Below, piece by piece: positions 1 through 48,360 of a stretch of 64,000 nt of DNA (position 1 is the first letter of the stretch; each line of letters starts with the position of its first letter). A program made the position numbers and the translations under genes. The DNA is from Octopus vulgaris. Lineage: Eukaryota. Location: assembly GCA_951406725.2 (NCBI GenBank), contig OX597820.1:42098001-42162000 (forward strand). The letters run 5' to 3'. The notes beneath the pieces are model-generated. The model was not told the DNA's origin, ran no database searches, and worked only from the letters and a program-made list of their open reading frames with translations.

Positions 1-380
1 GTGTTTTTCATTTCAATAAACGCAGAAACTCTTCAGGAAAAATCGATTTCAGGGTGAAAATAAGTTCAGAACAAAATGAAACAGAAGAAAACTATAAAAA
101 GAAAGGAAAAATATAATAAAAAAATAAACTATTATTGTTATTATAAAGAGCAAATAAATAAATGAATAAATAAAGGTTAAATCTTTAAATTCAAAATCCA
201 ATAAAAGTCTTTAGAATTCGAAGATTAACCTTTCGGCTTTGATTTCTTGTTTTGAGGATCTTTGTAGGTAGATTCTCTTCGAAATATAAGACCATTTCTT
301 TCTATATTTACTGTCTGAAGTGAGAACGCATAAAGCAGAAGCACGTGCATCCACAAATACGTATATATAGCTACATATAG

Positions 381-409
381 ATACACACACACACACATAC
401 ACACACACA

Positions 410-450
<41 letters not shown>

Positions 451-620
451 ACAAACACACACACAACACATATCAGTAGAAACACTGAATCTTCTGGGAA
501 ATTTACCTGTGATAGAGTGCTTTATGTCTTTGGAGATTCAGTTTTCACTCTCCCTACCTCTCCATCCGTCTGTTTCTCTCTCTGTGTGACTCTCACTCCC
601 CTTATGACTCTCTCTCTCTC

Positions 621-9544: not shown

Positions 9545-10740
9545 ATAGTTCAAATTTGCAGAAAACGAAAGACGAACACAGGTGTAGGATCAACAAGCAG
9601 GTATATAAGTTTAACGCTCGGGACAAATGGAAGAGTCTTATAGGTTTCGAGCCTACGTTCTTCGACAGAAAGAAGTAAGATAAAAATTGGACAGAGAATG
9701 AAAAGAAGCGGAGAGAGAAAAACTGTGCAGAGTGCATTGATCCAACATGGCGATATGACTGTAAAAGAAGAGGTTGAATAAAAGGGAGACAATAATAAAA
9801 ACGGTAATTGTGCCCCCGACAACCCAGGGTGCACAAGCGTTTGTTTGTGTATATGAGAATGGTATGTGAGTGTGTATGTGTGAATTGGGTGAGTGAGTCT
9901 AACGTCTGTGTGTGTGTGTGTGTGTGTGCATGTGTGTTGCGCGTGTGTGCGTATATATTGTCTGTGTTCAGCTTTTATGTGCTTGTGAGTGTCTGGGAAT
10001 GTGCATGATGGTGTGCAGTGTCTGTACTGAGTTAAACAGTGTATGTGGCTGCTTGTATAGTTATATGTGTGTAACGATATTGAAGATTGTGTGTGGGCAT
10101 GCGGATAATGGTGTGTGGTGTGGGTGCTGAAAAGCGGTCGGTGCTAGTGTGGGTGGAGTGGGAAGGTGTTGTGGGTATGTGTGCGTAATGGTGTGTGAAG
10201 TGAGTAATGTCTTGAACAGTGTGTATGGGTGTTTGCTTAGTGGTGTGAGTGTGGTGAGGGTACCAAGGTAGGCGGGATGCAGGTCGGTAGGGGAATGGGG
10301 GAAGTTGAATGTGGGAGGTTTGTGGGAGTTCGGGTGGCACCTGTGCAGAAACACTCCGCATACAGACAGCTGATGTAGCAAATGACCGGTAGAATAGGAG
10401 TAGCGCGAACCGGGGTGTCATTGCTGAGTCTGATGTCTCGGTGGTGCTCCACGAACCGGTCAGCCAAACGGCGTCCCGTTTCACTAAAGTACAGGGAAGG
10501 ACACTGAAAGCAGGAGGAAGTAAATAACATTACTAGAGGTGCAGGTAAAGGATTCGTTGACGTGATAGGGATGGTGATGGATGCCAGAGAAAGGTGGTGT
10601 TGGAGCGGTAGGAGCAGGTGCGACAGCGTGGGCGGCAGCAGGGGAAGGATCCAGGCTGGGAAACAGAGGTAGGGAAGAAACTGTGGACCAGGAAATCACG
10701 CAGGTTATGGGCTCGTTTGAAGGAGGGAATGGGTAGCTTT
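9545..10740 (-). mobile_element. 5'-truncated Penelope-like retroelement (Neptune-like GIY-YIG endonuclease, frameshifted) with pseudo-LTR
   Basis: Minus-strand frames give PSFKRAHNLRDFLVHS...PGSFPCCRPRCRTC...ESFTCTSSNVIY...CQCPSLYFSETGRRLADRFVEHHRDIR...TPV, i.e. VIY...Y-GET-R-L--RF-EH of PLE GIY-YIG with an upstream Cys motif. This is followed by a CA-rich UTR and an HHR-bearing terminus. Confidence 0.85.
9637..9672 (-). ncRNA. minimal type I hammerhead-like motif (core variant CUGUCGA)
   Basis: Minus strand CTTT-CTGTCGA-A-GAAC-GTAG-GCTC-GAAAC-CTA-TAAG; same architecture as the canonical HHR at 50665-50700. Confidence 0.5.
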
Positions 10741-11714
10741 TTATATTATTAACCCTGGAGGGATGAAGCGTTAATTTGACCTTAGCGAGGTCTTATGCAG
10801 GGGGCTAATACACGGTCCTTCAGCCCGCCAGAAAAATAATGTATCTAAATCTCCCTAAAATCAGACACCACTTACATTATTACGTAAAAAGATTCTGCAT
10901 ACCCTGAAAACACGGGACAGTGGTAGCTGGTATGTCTTCGTTCATATGCCTGCTACGTTGGGATTGATCTGTAGCTACACATCGGCAACAGCAACAATGA
11001 TAAAGTGCTTTGAGTATATTTTTTTTTCTGATTACAAATAGCAAAACAATCACACCCTACATTTAAAACAAAAGGTAAAACATTAAGCAATATAGTCCCT
11101 GACATAAAAAAAAAAAAGAACTGTGATGGTCCCGACAGCAATGCCTCTTCTCATATGTCTGCTAAATCAGGACTGAGGTGGGATTACTGAAGAACAACAA
11201 ATATTACATTATCAACAGCAGTAATAATCACTATACTGTAAAGCGGTTTATTTACAAATGAACTAGGGAAATTCTATTCGCCAGCTCTACCTGTTAGAAA
11301 GAGTAACCAAATTTCGTTCAGATTGCATGAAGGAAGCAACACATTTTAAAGATATATAGTTTACAAGAGACTGCTAAAAAAAAAAAAAAGAGGAAATGGT
11401 CATGGCTGGATTATCTCAAATCACACATCTACTCGGACAGGGTTGGTACAGGGTAGAGGAACTATGACAAATATGCTGTATCTTTAAATAAAGGAAATAC
11501 AAAAGTAACCAAAGTAAAACTAAACAAAGTCTACCAATTACACCAGTACTGTTATCTCCAGTACCGTTATTAACAACAACTATAACAACAATTCCAAAAC
11601 TAACATCGCAACAAACACAAATACTGCTACTGCTGCCGGATATCATACTGTGCAGTTCCTCCTGTTTCTACTGCATGGCTGCCACCTGTGTTAATGCTGA
11701 TACTTCTACAACTA

Positions 11715-13723: not shown

Positions 13724-14233
13724 TAGACATGAATGATATTTCTAACAAGCTAAGTGGCCAAGTAAAAATCTCTTAGCTCATGGTTATCTGTAAACATTGG
13801 ACCTGTGTATTAGTATTTGCGCTATGAGTTCGTCGAATGTATGTCTGTATGTAAATGTATGTATGTATGTATGTATGTATGTATGTATGTATGTATGTAT
13901 GTATGTATGTATGTATGTATGTATGTATGTATGTATGTATGTATATACTGACACGTTGCAGTTCCTGATCCTCTGAAGATGAAGGCTCTTGACTGGTGCA
14001 TAAATTTTCATCCACCATTCACTTCTTGGGATGTTCATGAATGCTTTTTTCTACGTAAAACTGACAAGTGCTGAATCAGAGCCAATCGCACCAGTTTTTG
14101 AAAACACGATTGCTATTTCTTCAGTACTTTCTCTCTCTTACTCTCTCTCTCTCTCTCTCTCACACACTTACACTTTCTGTGTCTCTCTCTCTTTCTCTCT
14201 GTCTTTCTCGACAATCGCACACGCACACACACA

Positions 14234-14275
<42 letters not shown>

Positions 14276-14408
14276 TTCCTCTTTTTCCCTCATCTCTATA
14301 CTTTTCTTCCTCTATCTTTCGTCTTGATCTCTCAGTCTGTCTGTTCGTTACTGTCTTTGTCATTGTCTCTCTGTTTCAGTCTCTATCTCTCCCATTCTTT
14401 CTCTCACC

Positions 14409-14443
<35 letters not shown>

Positions 14444-17400
14444 ATAGTTATTTAGATTGATGTGTAGTATTAAATCAAATGTAGACCAAGGAAACCGTAA
14501 TGATATTCAAAGTGCTTAAAGAAACGCCACGTCCTATTTTTTATTTATATTAATTATTAATTCTGACGCAATCAAAATATCAACGGCCACCTCTACAGGA
14601 TATTATATATATAAAAAATTATTGGTATCGATGATCTATCATTTTCTTTGGAAACAGAGTGGGAACATTTTTTGACCTGTTAATTAAGGCGTTAAATTAG
14701 GGTTTATATTCAAGCCTGACACAATGGGTATTTTTTTAATGTTCCTATCCGAGCGTAGGTATTTTTTTATTTTTTTCAATAACTTTCACATATTCGATAC
14801 AATGACTTATAATTCGACGCAGGCATAATGAAATAGTCGTCTGTTGCCATCTACAGTATATTTTCTTATCTATTACTTAATGTAAGGCAAGCTGCAGTCT
14901 ATGGGTACAAGAAATTGTAAAAGATTCTAAATGTGAATTATAGATTGAGGTTTACACTGTCAATATGATGAATTTACAAATTATTTATAAATTGAATTTT
15001 AAAAAATGGGTTAGAAAAATAACATTATAATTTGAATAATTTCCCAAGTTTCATGAAAAAACTGGCAAAAAGTCATGTGCATGATTGGACCTTCTTCAGT
15101 TTCTTCTCGAGGACATCATGTAAAAATTGCTACTTTGATTTCAGGGTCATCAAAGCTAAGTTGAGCATCTCAATGATGCTGTGGTTTAAGTTTTTATATC
15201 GAAGTATTTCTTTATGAGTAAGCTTTTTCATCATTGTAAAAGGGATTCAAACTCCATAGTATATATACATATATATATGTGTGTGTGTGTGTGTGCGTGT
15301 GTGTTATATAAAGAGTTCATCATCGTCATTATCATAGTTGTGATTGCTATTTTTTTCCTGATTTCATTTTCTTCACCTGAAACATCCCAGCTTTGTTCAA
15401 TTTTCATTTGGTTTCAATCTGTATTTGTACCGTTTTCTCTTTCGCTTGTTCTCTTTCGAATGTCTCCATCCCTCTGTGTCGCGCTCTCTCTATCTCCTCT
15501 CCTCTTTCTCTCTCTCTCTCTCTCTCTCACTTTCTCTCTCTCCCTCTTCTGATTCTTTCTCTTTCCACATACTTTTTAATATACATGTTTTCTATATATT
15601 TTTGCTGCTTGTCATCTCTGACATTATAAACATCACTTCCTATTTTTTAGCCTCTCTTTCTCTTCACATTTCCCCCCCCTTCCCTCTCTCTCTCTATTTT
15701 TTAATCCTTTCATTCTATTTCTTTTAAACTATCGCTTCACCTCCTTCCTCTCTGTTCTTTATCTCTTCTCTTTGCTCGCTTTCTCAATATTTTTTTCCAC
15801 TTTTTAATTATTGTCATTTCATCTTTTTTTTGTCTTAATGTTATTATAATTTTTTCTTCACTCCTTTCCAACTTTTACTTTTATCTTCAATTGATGTTTA
15901 GTTTTCTATGCCAATTCCGTTGTTATATGTATTTATTTATTTATTTATCTATTTATTGTAACGTATTATTTATTTTCGTTCTAAGTCCATGCTTACTCCT
16001 TTCTGGTTCAGTCTTCCCTTCTCCTCTCCTATATCCTCACTGTCTGCTAAGGCTGTCAATGCAGACACTATTTCTCCATTGTCTCCTGGTACCTGTTCTT
16101 TAATGCTGTCTGTCTGTTTGGTTGTCTGACGGAATATCTCTTTCGCTGTTACACTCCATACCCTAAAATTATTTCACTTACTTTGCCTGTCTTCCCTGTA
16201 TCCAGTTATTGATTTCTTGCATAGATATAGGCCACCACATTATCAGACAAGGGGCATGTGTAGTATTCATGCCTTTCTGAAATGTATTATTGACATGAAG
16301 TTAAGTGAGATTACAACAAACGGGAATCGAAACCTCGTCCCATATTGTCCCATATGCAAGTTGTAATTTGTCTAATCTCGTGTAATGGAACTATACACCC
16401 TGTAATATATTCGACTATTTGTTCATGGTATACTAAAAAGAGCATGATTTTCATGCCTAAGTGGAGTGAGTTGGTTTTAATGGTAAGTGGAAACAGGTTT
16501 ATGAATGCAGCTTGTCAGCAACTTATAAATCTCAACGTACACAGTGTGCTGTACACTGTCCAGGTTGGTGACTAATAGCTCTAGTCTTAAAGCGTTCAGT
16601 GACGAGTTTGCTTTTTATTTTCCTGTGTCTACTGCTGTTTGTTTCAATGCGAAATGGGTGAAACAACAACATATTTGGCTTTATAGGTATACTCTAACAT
16701 ATACTTTATAGGTATCCTGTACTATATTATAGGTATACTTTATAGGTATTTCATATAATGACAGCCGATATAATTATTGGTCGATTGGTTAATTTCACTA
16801 GTCACATCTTAGAGATAGGATGAGAGTGTAAAGGAGCAATACATAGAAATTCAATATAAGAGGTGTATGGTGAGTACGCATACTAGGCTTTATGGCAGGG
16901 AATGACTAAAATAATGCTACGTACCCACTAGACGACTCAAAAAAAATCATAGAAAAAGATAGTAGCTATCCGAGGAGTTATTAATGAGAATTTTAAAATT
17001 CAATTTCATTTTAAGTTAATAAATATCTTTATTTATTAAAATTTGTATACATTTCTTTGTTCTGTATCAGCATTAAAATCTTAGAAAAGTTCAATTATGT
17101 ATGCTTTGCAGTAGAGATAAATGTTAAAAGATGTTAAAAACATCTGGTTTCGCAATCAAAGGGTCCGAGGCTCTACGAAGCTATTTCACCGTCTGATGAG
17201 ACGTCGACTGCTGCATTTGAAGACATAATTCAACAAACAGTTCTTTTTGCACAGGAGTATTTTCTCTAAATGGAGGGCTGAATGGAAGACTTAATGGGGG
17301 ACTTAACCAGAATGTCCTGCATCTAAACAAATACGTCCAAGTGAGGATTTTATTCTTTCTAAAATCCGCCATGAAAAGATTTCATGTCCCAATATCTCGT

Positions 17401-17613
17401 TTAAATCGGGAGCCCAATAAATAATTCATGTTCTTTGTATCTACCTCTCATTCACTCTCCATCTCACCATTCACAATTTCCTTTTAACTCTTCGTTTCAT
17501 TTATAAGTTCATTCTTTCACATTTTGAATTTTTCCTTCATTTCTTTCACTCATTTGACATTTATTTCTACTTTGTTCTCCGCTGCCGACAAAATCTCTCT
17601 TTCTCTTTCTCTC

Positions 17614-17688
<75 letters not shown>

Positions 17689-17702
17689 ACTCTCTCTCTC
17701 TA

Positions 17703-17750
<48 letters not shown>

Positions 17751-17994
17751 ACACATTCTTACTCACACTTCGTATACAGTTATCCGATATGGATTTTGTT
17801 CTGGTCCTGTAAAGTTTCTATGGTCCCTTTTATACCTCAATATAATCGATCGGTGCTATTTTTTCTTCTATAACTGTATTGTCAACTAATGCTGACATAG
17901 TACACTTTTCGGTCTCTTAATGTGTGCCATTACTGCTTTCAATGACTCTAGTAAATACGTATGCACAGTTTTCATTTTCATCTATCTATCTATC

Positions 17995-18065
<71 letters not shown>

Positions 18066-18514
18066 AATTTTTCTAGCAAGCTATTTTCTTTTATTCCTCT
18101 CGGATTACATCTATTTACTAATGCTTTACTTTGTCCATTTCTTGCTTCCGTTCATCCTCCATTTGTCTGGTCATCATATGACCTTCCTGTCACGTTACTG
18201 ACCTGCAGGTAGTCTATTTCAAATTCACTGTATTTTCTTTAACCCCATATCATTCCTAATTACCCTTGCACACACACACACATGTGCTTTCCCCACAGTC
18301 CCTTTATCTGTTTTCTCTCTCCTTCGTTCCACCCCTTCAAACAAACAGGACTTTCAGATACATACATACAGACATGCACACACGCACACACACACATATG
18401 TACATGCACACATAAGTAAGTACATACATACATACACATATATACATTCATACATACGCAGATGTATACACGGCTCTTTCTGTTTTCCTCTCTGTGTCAC
18501 TCTCGCTCTATCTC

Positions 18515-18625
18515 TCTAACTCTCTTAGGCAACACTGTCGTGGTTGCACGCTCCCTTTGCAACCAAGTGGTTGCGCATTCAGTCCCACTGCGCGCAGTAT
18601 GGGCAAGTATCACAATGTCCTGTGA
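18515..18625 (+). mobile_element. decayed SINE head (family of 52874-53298)
   Basis: CAACCAAGTGGTTGCGCATTCAGTCCCACTGCGCGCAGTATGGGCAAGT resembles AACCACATGGTTCCAGGTTCAGTCCCACTGCGTGGTACCTTGGGCAA. Confidence 0.55.
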
Positions 18626-18709
18626 ATGAATTTTGCTGATGGAAACGGTGTGGAAGACTATCGTATGTATATGTTGTGCGCATGTGTGACTGTGTGTGTG
18701 TTCTTGTGT

Positions 18710-18829
<120 letters not shown>

Positions 18830-19114
18830 TGCGTGTGTTTGAGTTTGTCCCCAATCACCGTTTGGCAAGCGGTGTTGATTTGTTTACGTCTCTGTAATTG
18901 AGTTATTCGGCACAAGCGACAAATTAAAGTCTGTCTTCTTTCCGTTTTCACCTTCATTTCTTTCTTTCACGTTCCTCCTCTCTTTGTACTTTATTCTCCC
19001 GTCCTGTATCCTTTCAACTTAAAAGTTTCGATGCAAGTCCTTAATACTTTCTTCCTTTCTCTCTCCGTTTCACTCTATCCTCCAACTCGATATTCACACA
19101 CAGACACACTCACG

Positions 19115-19172
<58 letters not shown>

Positions 19173-20099
19173 TCATAAAATGTACAGTCTCGCAACTCTT
19201 ATTCAACTGCCCTTAGCTTACATCTACCTCTCTTTCTTCCACGCTTTCTCGTTCTCTCTTCTACATAATATTCCGTGCTTTTGTTCTCACTGACTCTACA
19301 GATTCTTCTCACCTTTATTCCTCAACCACATTCCTCTCGCTGTGAGTTCTTTGCAGCAAATATATCTACAGTCACTGACTTTAAAATCGCTCTCTTCGCT
19401 TCAGTATTAGTTCCGTGCTCTAACTCACTCTCTATCTGTCCATCTACACATCTCACCTACATCTGCTATTCTAACCCCTCTATCTTGCGTGTCAGTTATT
19501 GACGCTCCCATTCTTTCCGTCTCTAGCTTATTTTCTCTGTCTCGCACATATGTACATACTGAATGTATATATTATAATAAATAAATAGAATATAATATAT
19601 ATATCGCGCACAACACACACACACACACATAAATGTGTGTGTGCGTGTGTATATTTCCAAACATCTCTTCCTTTCTCAACTTTCTCCTCCAGTTCAAAAT
19701 TCATTCCCTCCGTTTCTAGCTCTCTTTGAATACGCCACGTTCAGTCACTGCAACTCTATCTACACTCTCCCGTCTAACCTAAATAACCGAACGTTCTTCG
19801 AACTGCCAGTACGGAGCTGCCAACATACCTATACAGACATGTAGTCCTGTTCCGCTTCCTCTCTCTACAATCTATTCAAGCACTCCTTCCTGAACACAAA
19901 CCGAACTCGCCTCCATTGTTCAGCTGCTGTTGTTCATTTTACCCTTCCGTTCAGTTGTACTTCTCTCCACCTTTCAGTTCCTGCAGTTTCATTCAATTTT
20001 TAAAAATAAATGTATGCACTAACATATAGATTACTACCTGCAATGAGTAGCACATTAACACTTGTATTTATTCATGAACTTAACAAATATCTATCTATA

Positions 20100-20161
<62 letters not shown>

Positions 20162-20250
20162 CCTATCTGTATGTAATATATCTCAATTTGTGTGCGTGTA
20201 TGTATACGAGTGCATGTTTGCACACACATACAAGAATGTATGTGTGTATG

Positions 20251-20311
<61 letters not shown>

Positions 20312-20375
20312 CACACACTCACACAGATTTATATATATATATGTATATACATACATAATATAAATACATATATAT

Positions 20376-20412
<37 letters not shown>

Positions 20413-20831
20413 CATGCCCGCACACACACATGTTTATACACACAGATAGAATAGAGTATTCCAATACTAAGTATAACTTGTTCTCTTTCCTTTTACTTCT
20501 TCGTTCCCTCTGTGCAATGTCTCTCTATAACGTTCTCTCAGTATGTACATATACGCAGCAACACATACCTACAAACATATTACTATATAATTACACTTGA
20601 TCGGACGCTGTTCATTAAATCTATTACTTATACATTTTCCTCCCTTAATCCTAGCTTTATACCTGTAATAATTATTTTGCCTATTCTTTTTTTTTTTCTG
20701 TTTTCTTTTTTTTTTTTTTTTGTTTTGTTTTGAAACAGGCATTTTGTCGTTAACTTGAGCGTATTTTTTCGATTCCTCTATTAGTACGTACATTCATCCA
20801 TCCCGCTCTCCATCCATCATCTATCTATCTG

Positions 20832-20874
<43 letters not shown>

Positions 20875-21182
20875 CACTCCTTCCACACACATTCACACAA
20901 ATATTTCCCCACACATAAGCATACCCACCGATGCAATAATACATACAGACAGATTTTTTCCATCATTTTCTGCCGTTTTTCTTCATTGAATGGAACCTAG
21001 TCCCCATTCTTTTCATGTATTTTTTTTACACTTGCTTATATATTTTCGACTTACCTCTATCCACTTTCCACTCTTCGCTCTCTATATTCACATCTATCAT
21101 TTCCTATCCTCAAACATTCTTGCTCCAGTTTTTCACCTCATTCCCAGATTAGACTCCATCCATTCGAACGTTCTCTTTCTCC

Positions 21183-21235
<53 letters not shown>

Positions 21236-21919
21236 TTTCTGTAACTCCCCCTCTCTCATTTCCGTCAAAGTGTCCTATGTAATAATTACGGTCCATACTA
21301 CACTAATATTTCTGTTTTCTCTCTCTTTACTTACTATTAAATGATGCATCACACCCATACGTTCTACCATACCTATTGCTGTATCCCTTCTTTCGTTCCT
21401 ACACCAGATTTAACCACTCACCTTAAGTGCTTCAAGAAGGATTCGGCTCCAAACTTTGTACGTACACATTAATCTAGCGAATATTTCTCTGGATGCAAGC
21501 AAAATAATAAAAAGAAAAAGAATAAAAAAAGGCTCTACTTAATTCTTCTAGATATCTTTTCTTTATTTTCTTATACGCTTTATTCGTTCATTTAGCAATT
21601 TTTCCGTTTTATTATTTTATTTTTTGAATTTTTCTCTCCGCTTTTTCTTTTTCTCCTTTCTCCGTCATTCCGCCTATTTCCTACATCTATTCTTATTTCA
21701 TCTAACTATTCCTTTTCTTTTCAATATTTACCAATTTCTCGTTATTATTTATTTATTTATTTACTTCGACTTTTTGCTTTTGTAGTTTATTCGGTCACTT
21801 TCCCCTCTTTACTCCTTCCCAGTTTCTTCCGTTTCTCTGCTAAATCTTTCTGTTAATTCCGTCAACCACTATCACAGCCACCATCACCATCGCCCATATG
21901 TATTTTTCTTTCTTTCACA

Positions 21920-21958
<39 letters not shown>

Positions 21959-22176
21959 TCTCTCTCTCTTCCTCTCTCTCTCGATTGTCGTTCATTTTCT
22001 TATTTATTTTTCTCTTTTTACCCAACTACTTTCCTAAACCTTCCCATGTTAAACTTGACTTGCGTGAAATATCGATTGGGAGAATACTTTCATGTAGTAG
22101 GTCCAGCAATAGCATTTACAGTTTCGACGGCTCTGCACTGGAATCAGTAGATTTTGTTTCGTTGCTTATGTCCCAG

Positions 22177-29268: not shown

Positions 29269-29733
29269 CACAGGTACAGGAAAATATTTGATGGGCGTTC
29301 TGTGAAATTTTCACATTGCTACCGTCCCAGTATGAAAAGTATCATTACACGAGGTCAATAACAGGAGCCTAAATCCAGTTGTAACTGTGGGGTCCCATGA
29401 TCCTGTCCACGTGACTAACGATGCACGATTGAATCTGTCATATATGTGGCTGAAATTATTGCAGCGCTTGGTGACAAAACAGATAAGAAGACTTATATTG
29501 GGTTATATGAAGGGGAATTTAAGAATTAAGATACAAATCACATAGCCTCCTTCCGACATAAGAACAAAAGAAAAAATACTAAGTTGGCTAGCCATGTATG
29601 GAATTTGAACTCTAACGCAACACCACACGTGATTAACTGGAAAATATTTGAAAAATCCACATGTTATGTTAATGGATCAAAGAAAAGTAAGCCATGTTTA
29701 GCTGAAATAGATCATATCCTTTTCAGATCTAAG
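29269..29733 (+). pseudogene. Naiad-like Penelope retroelement C-terminus (RT end, Cys knuckle, GIY-YIG endonuclease) with stops
   Basis: One frame reads HRYRKIFDGRSVKFSHCYRPSMKSII...SSCNCGVP*SCPRD*RCTIESVIYVAEI...KKTYIGLYEGEFKN*DTNHIASFRHK...TKLASHVWNL...INWKIF...YVNGSKKSKPCLAE. Matches KIFN-N-VK-SYSC-PN, CNC..CP..C, VIY...YIG and C-LCL-E motifs. Confidence 0.85.
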
Positions 29734-29771
<38 letters not shown>

Positions 29772-32700
29772 TTGTTTGTACGTACATACACACATATACA
29801 TGGACACATCCACATACATGTATATATGGAAACTGATTCCACTTAACTACGCGTGATTGGCAAAATTTTCCTCGTGTGTAAGATAGCAGTAAGTTGCAGT
29901 AGAACATATCAGGGGAAAAACTAACATTACCAAATACTTTCTAAAATATCTCGGTCAATACATTTTATCATCACATGTAGACTTTGACAATACGTCGAAA
30001 TATGATTCTTACCTACTTGTAACACCTATCAATACAGGCTTCATAAATGTATATATAAATGACTGCAAAAATAATTGTTCGAAATAGTATTATATCGTTC
30101 GAAATAGTATTATAATTGTATTTACTACAAGAACACGAAAGACTTGGCATTTTCTTAAGGTTAGACATTTACCATCATAATCTCACTATAATCGTATCTA
30201 TATTTCAGATGAACGCCAAATAAGATTAAATTTTGAAATAGTTGAATAATTACAAGTTTTGCATAGTAAAATTAACATATAACATCTGAGGAAATGAATT
30301 GAAGTAACATTTCCCAGATATTCAAGAAACTTCACAGTCAGAATTTATATGTAAAGCATCAAAAATTACAATGGAATGAAAATTAACATAGCGCAACGTC
30401 AACAATAACACACAAGTTGTCAATCTTTCGTCAACTTTTCTAACGTCAAATGCGTGTAGAAAATGTGTTGAAGGAAGGGTTGAGACTTCCAAAAATCTTC
30501 AATTATAGGAAGAAAATTGGAGAACAGTCTAATACGAGCTGTGAATTTGAAGCAATGTCTAGAGGAGGAAAATATAACATACAAGTACATCATGTTATTA
30601 TTTAAGCCCAGTTAAAACCTGATCGAGCTTAATTATTGTGAAAGGTCTCATGGAGATGGGCTAGCCATTTTTCCTGCTTCCTTTTTATATCTATGAATAA
30701 TTTGATGGCATGCTTCTGACATACAGCAAGTAGGTATAGGGTTTCTCACAACGTATATGTAAGCCATGCAAGAGTAAAAGACAGAAGAGAAATATAATTT
30801 GGAAATGCAGGGTAGCAAAACACTTGTCATATTTGCTGTTACTATCAAGAGACACCTTAGATTGTGTTTATTTCGCCAACCATCGATACCCAGAGTTTGG
30901 TGTGTTTGGTCATTGGAAGTTAAACGTTTTGGTCACATGCAAAATTCAGCAGCGGTAATTTGATACGAACTGCCATCATCTACCTTAGTTTTTCGATCAT
31001 TATTTATTGTTTGTGAGCGTATATGTATGCATGTACTTATGCATGTGTCTCTCGCGCTCTCTCCCACTCTCTATCTCTCGCACTCTCACTTTCTGTATAT
31101 AGATATATATATATATATGAACGTATAAGTATATATTTTCACAAATGCTCGTGTATTTACACACATACACACACACGCACACACGCACACACACACACGC
31201 ACACATATAGCTTCGTTCGTACAAAGAGCTGAGTGTATTCAAGTAAAATGATACACCACAAGGTATGACCAGGTAAAAGTATTTAATTAACACCCGAGTT
31301 TACATTTATAAAACCACAAGCTCGTACAAGCGGGTCCCTGTAGAACTGTCCTAAGATTAAACACCTGCACACTGAACGGTATTGGCGAAATGTCTTCTGG
31401 TTATTCGGTTTGGAAGTAAATATAATTAAATATGTCTGTGCATATGCTACTACTCTGCGAAGGTGAAACTGTTGGATGAATATTAATATGTATTAGGTTA
31501 TGTATGCAATAGTAAATACATAGAAGTGTATCGGGTGTTAAATGTAAACATATGATTTTACAATTATATAGACAATTACATATATCTCTTGTATTCACCT
31601 ACACTTGAGTCTTTATAATTCCATCACTTTTCATGTGTATACGGACAAAATTAAAATTATACATTTTGGCGCAAAGTTACATATCAGTATGTGAAGAGAC
31701 ATATGCATATAATTTGAAATATGTATAAACAGGCGTTCCCAAGATAAATCTGTTTTAATTTAAATTTAACAAATCACACACACTAACACACACGCGCGCG
31801 TGTGAACACTCTTATTAACTTGCCTTGGCTCTTCAAATACTGAATGGAGACAAAGTGGTATTGGCATTCTTTATAGCGTCATTTAAACCTAGCACCATCC
31901 TTCCCTATGTACTTGCACCCACTGCCGGTTTGTTCTACAAAAATGGTGAACTCAAAGACAGACAGAACGAAAGAAACAGAAAAATTGGCTCAGTACACAA
32001 ATGGCGCTTTATTTTTCGATTGTGAATGGAAGAATGGCAAAGTTGAGAACTCTGGGTTTAAAAGAATATTCTACTATACAGTGAAAAATGTTAACTACAC
32101 TTCTTGAGAAAAAAAGATGTGATTAACAAAATATATTATCTCCCTTTGGGAGAGAGTTTCGTCGCTTCTGCTGATACAATCAAAACATTTAATGTAACTG
32201 TGGTCGACCCAAGCTGGAGCGTCAACGTCATAAATTAAATCGATGTGACCTTCAGGATTCTTACAACATGCCAGTTATGAGAAAAGTAACGACAGCATGC
32301 TTAATTCTTTGCCTTACCTCGTTCTCACAGTAGGTGAAAGTTATTTTTCCTATATCAAACAAAACGCGAAAAGTGAAACATACCTGAGGCCAGGTATGTG
32401 AGGCTATGATTATATGAGTCGTCACGAAAGTTTAAATTCTATTCTCCCCTACGCTGCCTTGATCCCTATATCATTGGTACGATGCATGCAGAAAATATTC
32501 CATCAGTACTGCCCAAACAATGTGGCAAGTTTGCAAACAAAGGAACACTGGCCTCTTTTAACTTTTAGCCTGTACGAAACTTGGGCTCAAATCATATAGC
32601 AAAATTTGTAGCTGAACGGAATTAGTTTTATTCAATATTCCTGTCGAAAAGAAGATATCTAGTATTAAAACGTCACCTCAGGTAAATTGTTCTAAATATA

Positions 32701-34286: not shown

Positions 34287-35699
34287 ACGGCACCAAATAG
34301 AAAAGAATTGTCTGAGGATTTGAAGAAAATTATTTTTAATTTGCACAAGAATGGTTTACGATATAAGTTAATTAGCAAACGAATATATATATTTGTTTAC
34401 TACCCACAAGGGGCTAAACATAGAGGGGACAAACAAGGACAAACAAACGGATTAAGACGATTACATCGACCCCAGTGCGAAACTGGTACTTAATTTATCG
34501 ACCCCGAAAGGATTAAAAGGCAAAGTCGACCTCGGCGGAATTTGAACTCAGAACGTAACGGCATACGAAATATAGCAAACGAATATATATATTTCTTTAC
34601 TACCCACAAGGGGCTAAACACAGACGGGACAAATAAGGACAGACAAACGGATTAAGTCGATTACATCGACCCCAGTGAACTGGTACTTAATTTATCGACC
34701 CCGAAAGGATGAAAGGCAAAGTCGACCTCGGCGGAATTTGAACTCAGAACGTAACGGCATACGAAATATAGCAAACGAATATATATTAGCGTAAACACAG
34801 TTGCTAGAGTAATTCAGAGGTGCAAAGCTACTGGACGGCTAAGCAATGAACATCATCTAGGTCGTCCTATTTTAATTGCGCGAGATATTCGCCACAACCA
34901 ACGTTGCGTGATGGACGAGAGGCATCGTACCGCTTCATCTTTGGCCCAAGAAATGTCTTCTGTTAGTGGAAATAGTGTTTCCGCCCAAACAGTTGCCGAA
35001 GTTTGACCCAGTGTGGTCTTCAGGGATGTATTCCTCGTAGGAAGCCTCTCCTCACTACCAGGCATAAGTCAAGTCATCTTTCTTTTGCTGAAACCTATGT
35101 GAGTAAGGGAAAGGATTTTGAGAATGAAATTATTTTATCTGACGAGACTAAAATCAACTTGTTTGGGTCAGATTGTATTAAGCGAATATGGCGACGACCA
35201 GGAGAAGATAATAGCGACAAATGTAATGTGCCTACCGTGAAACACCGTGGTGGAAGTGTTATGCTTTGGGGATGCATGAGTACAGCTGGTATGGGGAAAC
35301 TCACATTTATTGAGAGAACAATGGATTCAAGGCTTTATTGTGACATATTGCAGAAAACAATGCTGAAAAGTATCAAGGGACTAGAAAACAATTCCATGTT
35401 CCAGCATATTAATGACCCTAAACACACTTCAATGATGACGCTAAGTTTTTATTATATAAAAATTTTAAAGTAATAAATTGGCCTACCATGTCACCTGATT
35501 TAAACCCAATACAACATCTGTGGGGTGTTTTGAAAAAGAAGGTTGAGGAGAAAAAACCTGCAATGTAACACGGTTGAAAGACATCATTCAGAATGAATGG
35601 AGGTCGATTTTATTGGAGATATGCGGGAATTTAGTTGATTCTATGGCCAGAAGACTTAATGCAGTCATTGAAAGCAAGGGCGGTCACACCAAGTATTGA
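34287..35699 (+). pseudogene. Tc1-like DD34E transposase pseudogene (ATG to ACG, SINE insertion, frameshifts)
   Basis: APNRKELSEDLKKII..HKNG..YKLISKR / SVNTVARVIQR..GRP / PRRKPLL..LSFA..ILSDETKINLFGSD..IWRRPGE..PTVKHRGGSVMLWGCM / FQHINDPKHTS / WPTMSPDLNPIQHLW / LVDSMARRLNAVIESKGGHTKY*. Confidence 0.92.
34391..34768 (-). mobile_element. two tandem 5'-truncated SINE copies inserted in the Tc1 transposase
   Basis: Copies at 34391-34572 and 34591-34768 (TTCTGAGTTCAAATTCCGCCGAGGTCGACTTTGCCTTTCATCCTTTCGGGGTCGATAAATTAAGTACCAG on minus), separated and flanked by TAGCAAACGAATATATAT x3. Confidence 0.92.
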
Positions 35700-44993: not shown

Positions 44994-45204
44994 CATACAT
45001 ACACACTTGTTTTTGTGTGTTTTTTTATGTCGTATAAAGACCTTCCACGCTGCAATTGTTTTTACTTCAGAACACGATCTCAGATAAATGTCACTTGCTA
45101 TGCAAGTACATCTCCGTAATATGTATGTGTGTGTGAGTTAAATAAAATGAGACAACAAAGCCAAGGCTGTGTAGAATTTATAGGACATTTGTAAAGAGAA
45201 AGGT

Positions 45205-45252
45205 ATTCTACAGCTGTTTCGGGGATATTAGGTATATTCCTTCCTCAGAGAC
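45205..45252 (-). ncRNA. type I hammerhead ribozyme (left arm)
   Basis: GTCT CTGAGGA A-GGAATAT-ACCTA-ATATCCC-C GAAAC AGCT GTA GAAT; palindromic stem III ACAGCTGT; 3' side of stem I mutated. Confidence 0.65.
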
Positions 45253-45702
45253 GGTATGAGAGAGTTAACTAGAGTCCAATATTAGGAGTCATTTTGGAAA
45301 AGGATGGATATAGGAAGAGTAAACGGAGATAAGAGAATGAAAATAAAAATAAAATATATGTAGGATGCTACTGTTGCAGCTCCATTATCAAAGGAAATTG
45401 CTGAGTATAATGGGTAGAACTGCTTCTCGTCCATGTCACGTAGATTCCAACAGGAGTTCTTATTTTGTTATTACAAACGAATAGTGTAGAGACATAGATT
45501 CCATTTAATCCTTAGCACATGGAATTTATGTCTCCACACTATTCATTTGTACTAAAAAGATATGAACTCCTGTCGGAAACTACAAGCAAAGACAACAAGC
45601 ATTTTCCTCTTATTTCCATTTATACTTCCTATATCTATCCTTTTCCAAAATAACTCCTTATATTGAAGTCTACTGTTTCCTTCTAGTTAACTCTCTCGTA
45701 TC

Positions 45703-45750
45703 GTCTCTGATGAAGGGATATCCCTAATATCTCAGAAACAGTTGTAAGAC
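45703..45750 (+). ncRNA. type I hammerhead ribozyme (right arm)
   Basis: GTCT CTGATGA A-GGGATAT-CCCTA-ATATCTC-A GAAAC AGTT GTA AGAC: stem I GTCT/AGAC, intact core, 7-bp stem II, GUA triplet; the 10.1-11.1 pair is non-canonical. Confidence 0.75.
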
Positions 45751-47240
45751 TACCTTTCTCTTTATAAATATGTTTGGCGTTGTTATCTCATTTTATTCAC
45801 CATAGACATGCTCACACAAAATCCACATTATACTCCTCACTGGTATTATTATCAAACCGAAAGTCTAACTACGACCATCCTGTAGCACTTACATAGCCTT
45901 ACCTGCCATCTTCAGTCTTCTGGATACCAATATTATGTTTGAGGTGCTAAACTATTTGATAAACATGAGCATTATCGTGTAGTTCTGAATTTTGCTTCAT
46001 AGGTATGTGTGACTCTAGATTTAAAGCCGCTTCGCGTGACTTTGAGCAAAACCTTTGTGCCATTACGTCTGCTCTTTGAGGAGAATTTAGTAGATAGTGG
46101 AGCCTCGTTGTACATGCTTGTGAATGAATATTTAAAATAAAGGAAAAGAATTTACTATTCTACACGAAAAAATCTAAAGCTTTCGACAGAGATGAAATAA
46201 ATACAAAACAGAAATAAATACTGGGATTCGCATATTCAAATTAAAATGCTTTCATTTGATACATCAATGATTAAAAGCGTGTACTGATTTACTTGATCTG
46301 TAAGAAATGGCGGTCCAATGCTCTCCAAGACTTACTCAGCTGTCATAATAATAATTTTTTCGCAGAATCCACTACAAGAGGGGAAGATCAAGCTCGGATG
46401 CTGTTAATCATAGGTCTGCTCAAACAGGATACAGTAGGTAGCATATATAGTTGGTGAATCATTATCTGAGTATATTAATGTATGTATTTATCCAACCCAA
46501 TTAATCATCCACCACATTTCTATACGTCTAAAGTTGTATGCCATTAAATTTCGAATAAATTCATCATGGTAGTCAGTACCGGTTATTATGCAGACAGGCA
46601 CTTGCCTGGTTATGTAATGTTTTAGACATCTGGTAAATATCAGAATATGTCATTATGTAGTCGGCCATTCTAGCTATCGAATTTAATAGCCTGTCAGTTC
46701 AGAAACAACTATACTACTAATTATGTAACTTCAGATCTACTCGCATAACACGTATAAATCATGTCACGAAACGGAGGTAATTTTTGTGTCACACATTTCA
46801 ACAAGCCTTCTGGAAAGATTTGTCAGAAATATGTTGGGAGGAAAGATCGAATAAAGAAAACATTTAGTATTCATGCTTTTTTGATACGGAGTCATAGCAT
46901 AGAGATGGTCGAATAGAATATTCAAATTTTATAGGAAATCTCTAGAATATGCTGTCAATTAAGCAAATTTAAATAGATAATCAACGGTGTTGATAAGATA
47001 GCATTGTTGTGGTCGACTTCATCAACTAACCCCTTCCCTCGAGAATCTGGCTTTGTGAAAATGCTTGGCGGCATTTCATACACGTTTCCTTTCTGAGATC
47101 ATATTCGGATGAAGTTTTCTTTGTCTTTCATCCTTTTGAGTGGATAAATGAGAAATAGTCAAGCGCTAGATTCGTTGTAATCAATTAGCCCATACACCCA
47201 AAATTTCAGGTATTAACTTGTGCCCATGATAAAAAGGATT

Positions 47241-48360
47241 GTTGTTGTTATTATATACTTTTAATGTGTATGTCTATTACAATCACTTGCTGAGACACCC
47301 AGCGTCCTAGGGCGAGTGAACCATAACAGATGTTACGTATGACTGAAAGTTTGGGCAGGGTAAGTGGCAAGGGCAGCTATGAACTATCTACATGTAATAC
47401 AACACAGACATTTAAATGGATAGTTTTTTTCTAAAGATGTAGGCAGTACTTGTCAGCACAATCTTCTGGATTTCTCTGTGACAGAGCTCTCCTAGGATCT
47501 TATCTAGTTGTTTCCGACATCCATTTCTTATCATACCTAAGGCATTCACTATAACAGAAATGGTTTTCGTTTTAAGATGCCACATTTTTTTGTATTTCAG
47601 TTTCCAGGTCCTTATATTTACTTAATTTATCAAATTCCTTAACAGATATATTTTTTAATCGGTGGGGACACTTACATCTACAAGTATTTCCTTCCTTGTA
47701 ATGACTATGCCTGATCAAATTGCCTGCATTGTTCTGTTGCTGTTGACTGGAAAATCCCAGATGATAGTGACGTTTTTACCTTCAACGACTGGCTCAAGAT
47801 AATGTTCATCCCAGTAAGCAGGAGTGCTGATTTTGTAGTGTCTACATATTTTCTAATCTAAATACTGTCCTACCATATCGTGGCGATTTCTGTGTTCGTT
47901 TGGTGTCAGAACAGGACATCCCGAGACGAGATGGCCAATTGTTTCATCAAATGTATCGCAGAATCTGCATTTAGGGTAGAGCCGTTTTGAAGAACGTTAG
48001 CCTGTTAGCTTTTAGTAAGCAAGCTTTGGTTCTGTGCTGCTAATATGAAACTCTCAATCTCTGGATTCAATCCTGACCTTCTTAGCCACTGATGGGTTGT
48101 TGCTTGACCTACATCAGTATTGCGGCTACGAAGTATATACTGTCCCTGCAACCGCTTCTGGCTCCACCGCTCCAATTTGTTTCTGCCCGTTCTTTTTGGC
48201 GGTCTGTTTGATCCGTATTGCTTGTTTAGTGATAGTGGTTTAAGGTTCTTTATCTAATTCCGTATGCTGTCAGGTCCGTCTTCCAATTCGCTAGTCTACA
48301 TGTTCTTCAGCCATTTCCCCTTAAACATTAGTACTTTCATGAAGGGCGTACTCTGTATAT
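47241..48360 (-). mobile_element. Dong/R4-clade non-LTR retrotransposon 3' fragment (CCHC knuckle + restriction-like endonuclease), pseudogenised
   Basis: Minus frames: LQGQY..THQWLRRSGLNPEIESFILAAQNQSLLT..C.FCDTFDETIGHLVSGCPVL..RHDMVGQY..VTIIWDFPV...MWHLKTKTISVIVNALGMI..EIQKIVLTSTAYIFRK; ends in a TAA/CAA tail. Confidence 0.85.

Follow-up and report, generated by a model that had tools for sequence, protein, structure and literature searches.

The window analysed here, a stretch of 64,000 nucleotides from the microsatellite-rich 2.8-Gb genome of Octopus vulgaris, carries a foldback made of two head-to-head, 5'-truncated 3' ends (pseudo-LTRs, pLTRs) of a decayed Penelope-like retrotransposon (PLE) of ~4 kb. 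The reading that we hold to be probable is that this pair of truncated ends, from an element with Hydra-clade motifs, likely arose in one insertion with two primings and is now likely transcribed from the minus strand as a hairpin that is likely edited by ADAR.

Structure of the foldback

The inverted repeat is real: its arms meet at 45504/45519 around a 14-nt loop, the innermost stem is identical at 29 of 32 positions, and 251 of 286 columns agree when one arm is aligned to the other. The near-complete palindrome described in an earlier, sequence-only reading was recovered with its loop and inner-stem identity; the limits proposed there (45141..45797) cut off the tail of the right arm, the true span being 45137-45932. 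The features, some of which are taken up in later sections, are as follows.

45119..45136, no strand: AT/GT microsatellite abutting the short 3' end, likely a remnant of the target; (TA)n/(CA)n stands at both ends of other pairs of the family
45137..45504, minus: left arm, a 5'-truncated 3' end of the element that stops at the short 3' end beside the GT repeat; its sense strand is the edited minus strand
45205..45252, minus: left hammerhead, decayed; core boxes and palindromic helix III kept, helix I disrupted on its 3' strand by a substitution plus a 1-nt deletion; contains six edited sites
45209..45765, minus: RNA-only T>C sites (A>G on the minus strand), 18 distinct, 8 common to both runs, all in the paired arms
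45336..45439, minus: segment of the left arm lacking a partner, its counterpart being deleted in the right arm
45505..45518, no strand: 14-nt loop, made up of ~9 nt between the arms and of the right arm's first 5 nt; its junction was found nowhere else in the assembly search
45514..45800, plus: right arm up to the short-end position, with deletions of 81 nt and ~24 nt
45703..45750, plus: right hammerhead, nearly intact; 4-bp helix I, CUGAUGA, an additional A, 7-bp helix II containing one G-U, a further A, GAAA and a GUA triplet
45801..45932, plus: tail (~135 nt) on the right arm only, none on the left; stops ~7 nt before the usual tailed end; in the full-length family copy L260 it leads towards the start of the open reading frame (ORF)

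Folded as the minus strand, the foldback reaches -323 kcal/mol (z -37 against 20 shuffles). The loop is spanned, with more than 31 letters to either side of it, by contigs from one DNA run (X2, 45294-45648) and from one likely-RNA run (X4, 45143-45560); the foldback is therefore no assembly artefact, which had been judged unlikely from the outset. The left arm had been credited with an extra ~70-90 nt, and the mismatch in length is indeed there, but by comparison with the family majority it comes from the 81-nt deletion in the right arm. The left arm itself has 13-nt and 1-nt deletions relative to that majority.

Both arms have drifted about as far as other copies of the family, whose median distance from the majority is 10.7%: the left arm differs in 37 of 368 columns (10.1%) and the right arm in 26 of 286 (9.1%). 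On the scale given in PMC13282606, whose species may not match, the insertion would be roughly 15-30 My old (a JC distance of 0.09 corresponding to ~25 My). The 5' ends of the two arms lie only 5 nt apart. The right end of the locus has no microsatellite, and no clear target-site duplication was found; in microsatellite flanks such duplications are unreadable.

Unrelated self-palindromes of 200-570 nt occur within 1.5 kb of many family copies (L002:2742-3119, L012:2057-2621, L013:1961-2201, L016:828-1169, L030:241-521 and others), and foldbacks are thus common in this genome.

The parent family

A genome search returned 2,942 first-look candidates, 40 of which were scored. When the copies are aligned, each arm proves to be the 3' portion of a longer repeat that is truncated to varying extents at its 5' end and has two fixed 3' ends: a short one, and a tailed one ~140 nt further on. 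Upstream of an internal microsatellite, longer copies carry a broken GIY-YIG ORF, an Asn-rich insert and a reverse transcriptase (RT); in L258-L260 the broken ORF pieces follow the order RT, then C-terminal GIY-YIG. L260 runs pLTR, ORF, 3' region, pLTR over ~4,070 nt, with unit positions 302-521 before the ORF and -599..368 after it, a partial tandem present in this one copy of the four examined, and from this layout the tail is sequence leading towards the ORF start. Five near-identical copies 21-27 kb apart (L208, L209, L212, L214 and L222, C9:52.12-52.22 Mb) form a tandem segmental array with the same insertion.

The RT and endonuclease (EN) pieces match other C-terminal-EN elements of the genome with E-values of 3e-26 and 2e-15, and find no match among Neptune-like elements (best E 0.69). 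For the GIY-YIG part, the Pfam scores lie below the cut-off (E 0.003 and 0.075) and the Atlas gives a GIY-YIG cluster match of 0.95. The RT piece has no Pfam match, its Atlas match, below 0.9, is no more than a lead, and none of 334 candidates from a single protein-database search was homologous to it, which is weak evidence. The motifs of the Hydra clade are legible in the broken frames: RWK as RMRWK in L260, DKT as FSDKT in L259 and L260, the CxCx5C linker as CNCRPGSIC in L253, and the CxxC and CxH around E and N as CKLC..E..N..CNH. Taken in place of a tree, these motifs suggest that the family belongs with the Hydra-clade elements. The flanks of 25 other pairs are mostly TA/CA repeats, in keeping with a preference for (TA)n. 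Inverted, 5'-truncated copies that bear the tail at just one of their ends fit an EN+ PLE. The earlier proposal of a Penelope-like product with an inverted pLTR was right.

A further part of that proposal, by which the peptides NLCL and KRYELLS in the arms are what is left of the ORF's C-terminus, is not supported: the letters are present, in two different frames, but they lie ~950 nt downstream of the real end of the family's ORF, and against a profile of related C-termini they score 5.5 bits where shuffles score 4.7 (protein) and 3.5 where shuffles score 3.5 (DNA). A non-autonomous family mobilised by a Poseidon-type partner was also considered and rejected, since the longer copies carry an ORF of their own. 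No DNA homology with the arms was found in the 30 best GIY-YIG loci (Neptune- or Naiad-like), nor in 30 loci carrying a CNLCLxEK motif.

The Hydra clade, as described by Craig et al. (2021; PMC8557442), has in common with the family RWK, DKT, the CxCx5C linker, the CxxC/CxH around E and N, a hammerhead, (TA)n targets, copies that are partial tandems or inverted and 5'-truncated, and a tail on one of the ends. The family departs from it in length (~4 kb against <3 kb in the clade, which L260 exceeds, although this is a tendency and no rule), in an Asn-rich insert before the endonuclease, in a ~1.4-kb 3' region with a microsatellite, and in a tail of ~140 nt where the clade has 30-40. It also has a pLTR, whereas Hydra-1_Obim, a 2,507-bp (TA)n element of Octopus bimaculoides, appears in supplementary File S1 of that paper without one, a distinction drawn from the listing. 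Upstream of the GIY-YIG remnant, Asn/Thr-rich inserts between the RT thumb and the endonuclease linker are seen in L236, L237, L249, L252 and L254, resembling the N-rich inserts of rotifer Penelopes (PMC3846280).

Head-to-head pairs across the genome

A 29-nt hammerhead motif from the right arm has 122 exact matches in the genome (control, 0). With one hundred listed loci reduced by the window, one locus already in the set, one merged neighbour and three duplicates, 94 motif-chosen loci were tallied, and an automatic rule scored 41 of them as head-to-head pairs, 38 with a gap below 100 nt; since pairs with two motifs are over-sampled, the true share must be lower. Among the 53 non-paired loci, 28 end short, 14 are tailed and 11 truncated.

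The ends of the pairs follow a rule. Seven of the 41 could not be scored at both ends; of the remaining 34, all but one have one short and one tailed end (33/34, binomial p 2e-9 against 0.5), the exception being short/short. Each of the two 3' ends coincides with a C|ATA step in the element and in most cases borders on TA/CA repeats; the 5' breakpoints are scattered from -599 to +465 of the unit. In 19 of the 33 pairs the short arm outreaches the tailed arm by more than 30 nt on the 5' side, the tailed arm is the longer in 10, and the two agree within 30 nt in 4; for 6 of the 33, the tailed arm comes to its end at position 340 or beyond, close to the end of the short arm. Where the short arm reaches further 5' and yet lacks the tail (19/33), neither arm can have been copied from the other. 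Arms of a pair are slightly more alike than arms of different loci (identity 0.874, n=22, against 0.850, n=86; p 0.012), a difference too small to establish that a single RNA served as template for both.

Origin of the pairs

From these regularities we infer twin priming at two fixed RNA sites as the best fit. The GIY-YIG endonuclease of the element would cut both strands of a TA-rich target and, (TA)n being alike on both strands, each DNA end would start copying the RNA from one of its two internal C|AUA sites. The two cDNAs would stop early and be joined 5' to 5', often with an overlap of 0-4 nt. At the present locus the arms would afterwards have drifted to 12% apart, and a passing transcript would fold back, hide a hammerhead that was already broken and be edited as ordinary repeat dsRNA.

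LINE-1 elements undergo a twin priming in which the two target strands prime two cDNAs that are joined head-to-head, with a variable second site and pieces that hardly overlap; the two-strand priming proposed here is the same, whereas both sites are fixed and the arms mostly overlap. A further precedent is the in vitro work on Poseidon of Anolis (PAc; Frangieh et al. 2024, PMC11167929), in which both strands of AT-rich DNA are cleaved and extended and two internal RT start sites bound the tail, and which makes twin priming the simplest model. PAc belongs to another clade, the sites of the octopus family are 140 nt apart, and a rule of one end each was not found in the part of that text available. 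An inverted 5'-truncated copy with a tail at one end is standard for these elements (PMC8557442, PMC3846280), and how PLEs make inverted repeats and one-sided tails is described in PMC8557442 as undefined.

The main rival for the origin of the foldback, also put forward in the sequence-only reading, is a snap-back or template switch, in which one cDNA bent back on itself close to its 3' end and served as its own template, or in which self-priming by an antisense RNA, as has been proposed for rotifer Penelopes, gave the second arm. Adineta vaga Penelopes (Arkhipova et al. 2013, PMC3846280) have the same head-to-head inverted pLTRs with a tail on one, and Asn-rich RT-EN inserts, and there self-priming is argued from palindromes at the junctions; in the octopus, the arms of this locus start 5 nt apart around the 14-nt loop, and, of the 82 5' ends that were sampled, 7 lie in the interval from -26 to +14, next to a short inverted repeat in the family sequence. 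The 19 of 33 pairs in which each arm holds sequence absent from the other cannot, however, be self-copies, and a self-copy would not give the fixed short end 33 times in 34 pairs. Snap-back is thereby refuted as the general route and possible for this one locus, and as an account of the foldback we consider it unlikely. Twin priming at two fixed sites remains the preferred reading in what follows.

Hammerhead motifs

Each arm carries one hammerhead-like motif, recognised by pattern, and both read outward, as had been claimed from the letters; the inverted pair thus gives one sense motif per strand. At the gathering score, Rfam finds no hammerhead in the window, its only hits being sub-threshold hairpin families. 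The family motif combines a 4-bp helix I, CUGAUGA and an extra A with a 7-bp helix II that has a G-C closing pair, another extra A, GAAA, a helix III that is palindromic and a GUA site. Like the right arm, it fits the minimal type I, dimer-dependent hammerhead of PLEs; the left arm fails at helix I. The palindrome of helix III is weakened in the right hammerhead, with a self-dimer energy of -3.4 instead of -11.1 kcal/mol.

The minimal type I hammerheads of PLEs described by Cervera and de la Pena (2014, PMC4209133), who already reported opposite-strand motif pairs 100-700 bp apart, have the same 7-bp helix II and 4-bp helix I, the extra nucleotide between 9 and 10.1, G10.1-C11.1 and the palindromic helix III. 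The second extra A, between C11.1 and G12, is found in 92 of 98 motif copies of the octopus family (e.g. L006; window 45737, plus strand) and is not mentioned in the accessible text of that paper.

The prediction that the long hairpin sequesters the ribozyme held up in the computed fold, in which the pairing probability of helix II in a transcript of the whole locus is below 1e-12 on either strand.

Transcription and editing

Four of 24 listed runs, all in the form of contigs, were compared, two of DNA (X1, X2) and two likely of RNA (X4, X5); the RNA status of the latter is a guess, they come from one study and carry neither strand nor level, and the DNA controls are from other individuals. 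The likely-RNA runs show 16 and 15 T>C changes, 13 each once those also present in DNA are removed, and no RNA-only A>G changes. The changes are confined to the stems: 13 of 111 and 13 of 129 paired-arm T positions are affected, against 0 of 169 and 0 of 158 outside (Fisher p 4e-6 and 2e-5), and none of the 30 adenosines in the unpaired segment of the left arm is edited in either run (the X5 count taken from contig 45335-45542). On the minus strand, the 5' neighbours of the 18 sites are U in 10, A in 6, C in 2 and G in none (p 0.016 for the absence of G); no 3' G preference is seen (3/18), of which PMC5625713 gives a weak one in octopus. Where covered, the edited sites are absent from both DNA runs. 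The family majority has A at 13 of the 14 edited sites of the left arm, so that the edited letters do not come from a paralog. Inside the left hammerhead, the would-be cleavage nucleotide at 45209, next to helix III, is changed in both runs. This is the ADAR pattern as set out in PMC5625713, and editing by ADAR is likely; the suggestion that the hairpin might be an A-to-I substrate is thus borne out in two runs that are likely of RNA.

Could the hairpin have been kept for a function in the host, such as regulated editing, nuclear retention or a small-RNA source in an intron or UTR? Likely-RNA contigs cover the locus at a depth of 12-40 and reach at least 46200, and eight edited sites recur in both samples. 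On the other side, the arms, which contain large indels, stand as far from the family majority as other copies do, hairpins formed by repeats are commonly edited (PMC5625713, PMC9989829), and no host gene was identified, none exceeding the Pfam cut-off in 148 of the 153 filtered minus-strand frames that were scanned. We regard such a function as very unlikely; none is needed at the locus, which is most likely a dead scar.

The individuals do differ between runs, and the T>C changes might accordingly be alleles, or come from an edited genomic paralog, instead of RNA editing of the locus. The RNA-only changes, however, run in one direction (13 and 13 T>C, no A>G), keep to the stems and have an ADAR-like 5' context; only 8 of the 13 are shared, the X4 contig crosses the unique junction, and the DNA of the family has no fossil excess of A>G (0.025 against 0.036 per site for T>C). 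We therefore find this explanation most improbable and retain likely RNA editing of a minus-strand hairpin.

Clustered A-to-I changes with 5' G depletion are known from repeat dsRNA (Porath et al. 2017, PMC5625713; Zhang et al. 2023, PMC9989829), where octopus shows the highest editing signal and dsRNA potential, a lizard Penelope has more than 40,000 sites, and a palindromic Harbinger is edited in frog. The present hairpin differs from these in coming from an insertion mechanism and not from a palindromic consensus or chance neighbours; octopus repeats were left unannotated by Porath et al.

That the hairpin is a self-propagating palindromic family, MITE- or retrozyme-like and moving as a unit, is an idea of the earlier reading to which we give almost no credence: L002, L003 and L007 have both arms starting near the same place, and one of them matches the junction query over its length at 77%, but their loops differ, the window alone matches the loop junction in full among 37 candidates from a genome-wide search, and the junctions of other pairs are scattered, so that the many copies with one junction and both ends expected of a MITE-like family are not seen. 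Same-strand (tandem) neighbours occur at only 4 of the 94 loci, hence there are no retrozyme-like arrays, and these few neighbours, together with the family's own ORF, are at odds with a non-LTR retrozyme, which has tandem units of 170-400 nt, each bearing a hammerhead, and no protein-coding part.

Novelty and wider meaning

Inverted pLTRs with a one-sided tail, opposite-strand hammerhead pairs, Hydra elements in octopus and heavy editing of Penelope repeats in lizard are already published in the sources cited above, and the family or its hammerhead variant may already be contained in the supplements of PMC11167929, PMC4209133, PMC13282606 or bioRxiv 10.64898/2026.07.22.740005. For PLEs, the rule of one end each, twin priming and an edited hammerhead were all absent from the literature searched, in which coverage of subscription papers is limited.

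The 33/34 rule and the 19 pairs that are not self-copies amount to a countable prediction for an in vitro PLE system, namely that each target strand extends from a different RNA site. From the 122 exact motif matches and a divergence of ~10%, we estimate that the family has roughly 2,600 arms and hairpins numbering in the hundreds, and such insertions likely help to supply the abundant edited RNA of octopuses; the locus in this way links insertion geometry to likely ADAR editing in a group whose high dsRNA potential is unexplained. A more general proposition, which we offer only tentatively and think rather doubtful, is that PLEs insert by fixed two-site twin priming on (TA)n, that a large share of the insertions are born as perfect short-loop hairpins, and that in octopods these are a major source of ADAR hyper-editing with a built-in ribozyme silencer, the last element resting on a hairpin that blocks the hammerhead fold and on editing that strikes the cleavage-site adenosine at 45209.

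Other elements in the window and genome

For 16 of 150 scored GIY-YIG matches in the genome, the open frame is exactly 781 aa long and has a CxxxxCxxC finger ahead of the endonuclease (e.g. L037, L042); these represent a young Neptune-like family that is probably active and whose 3' region has tandem repeats. Within the window, a frame at 29530-29856 (plus) resembles, by eye, the C-terminal endonuclease of another Hydra-type element, and frames at 10237-10792 (minus) resemble a GIY-YIG fragment of a further Penelope-like element, with no Pfam match at 0.01. At 34976-35473 (plus) and 34373-34786, a Tc1/mariner-like transposase fragment, recognised by eye, stands beside a ~200-nt direct repeat that is 95% identical. 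A C-terminal fragment of a LINE-like RT at 47440-48300 (minus; zf-RVT E 0.009, below the cut-off) sits about where 1.5-kb contigs flanking the element would end. Finally, positions 14000-22000 show a strong plus-strand pyrimidine skew, with a GC skew to -0.52 and an AT skew to -0.27.
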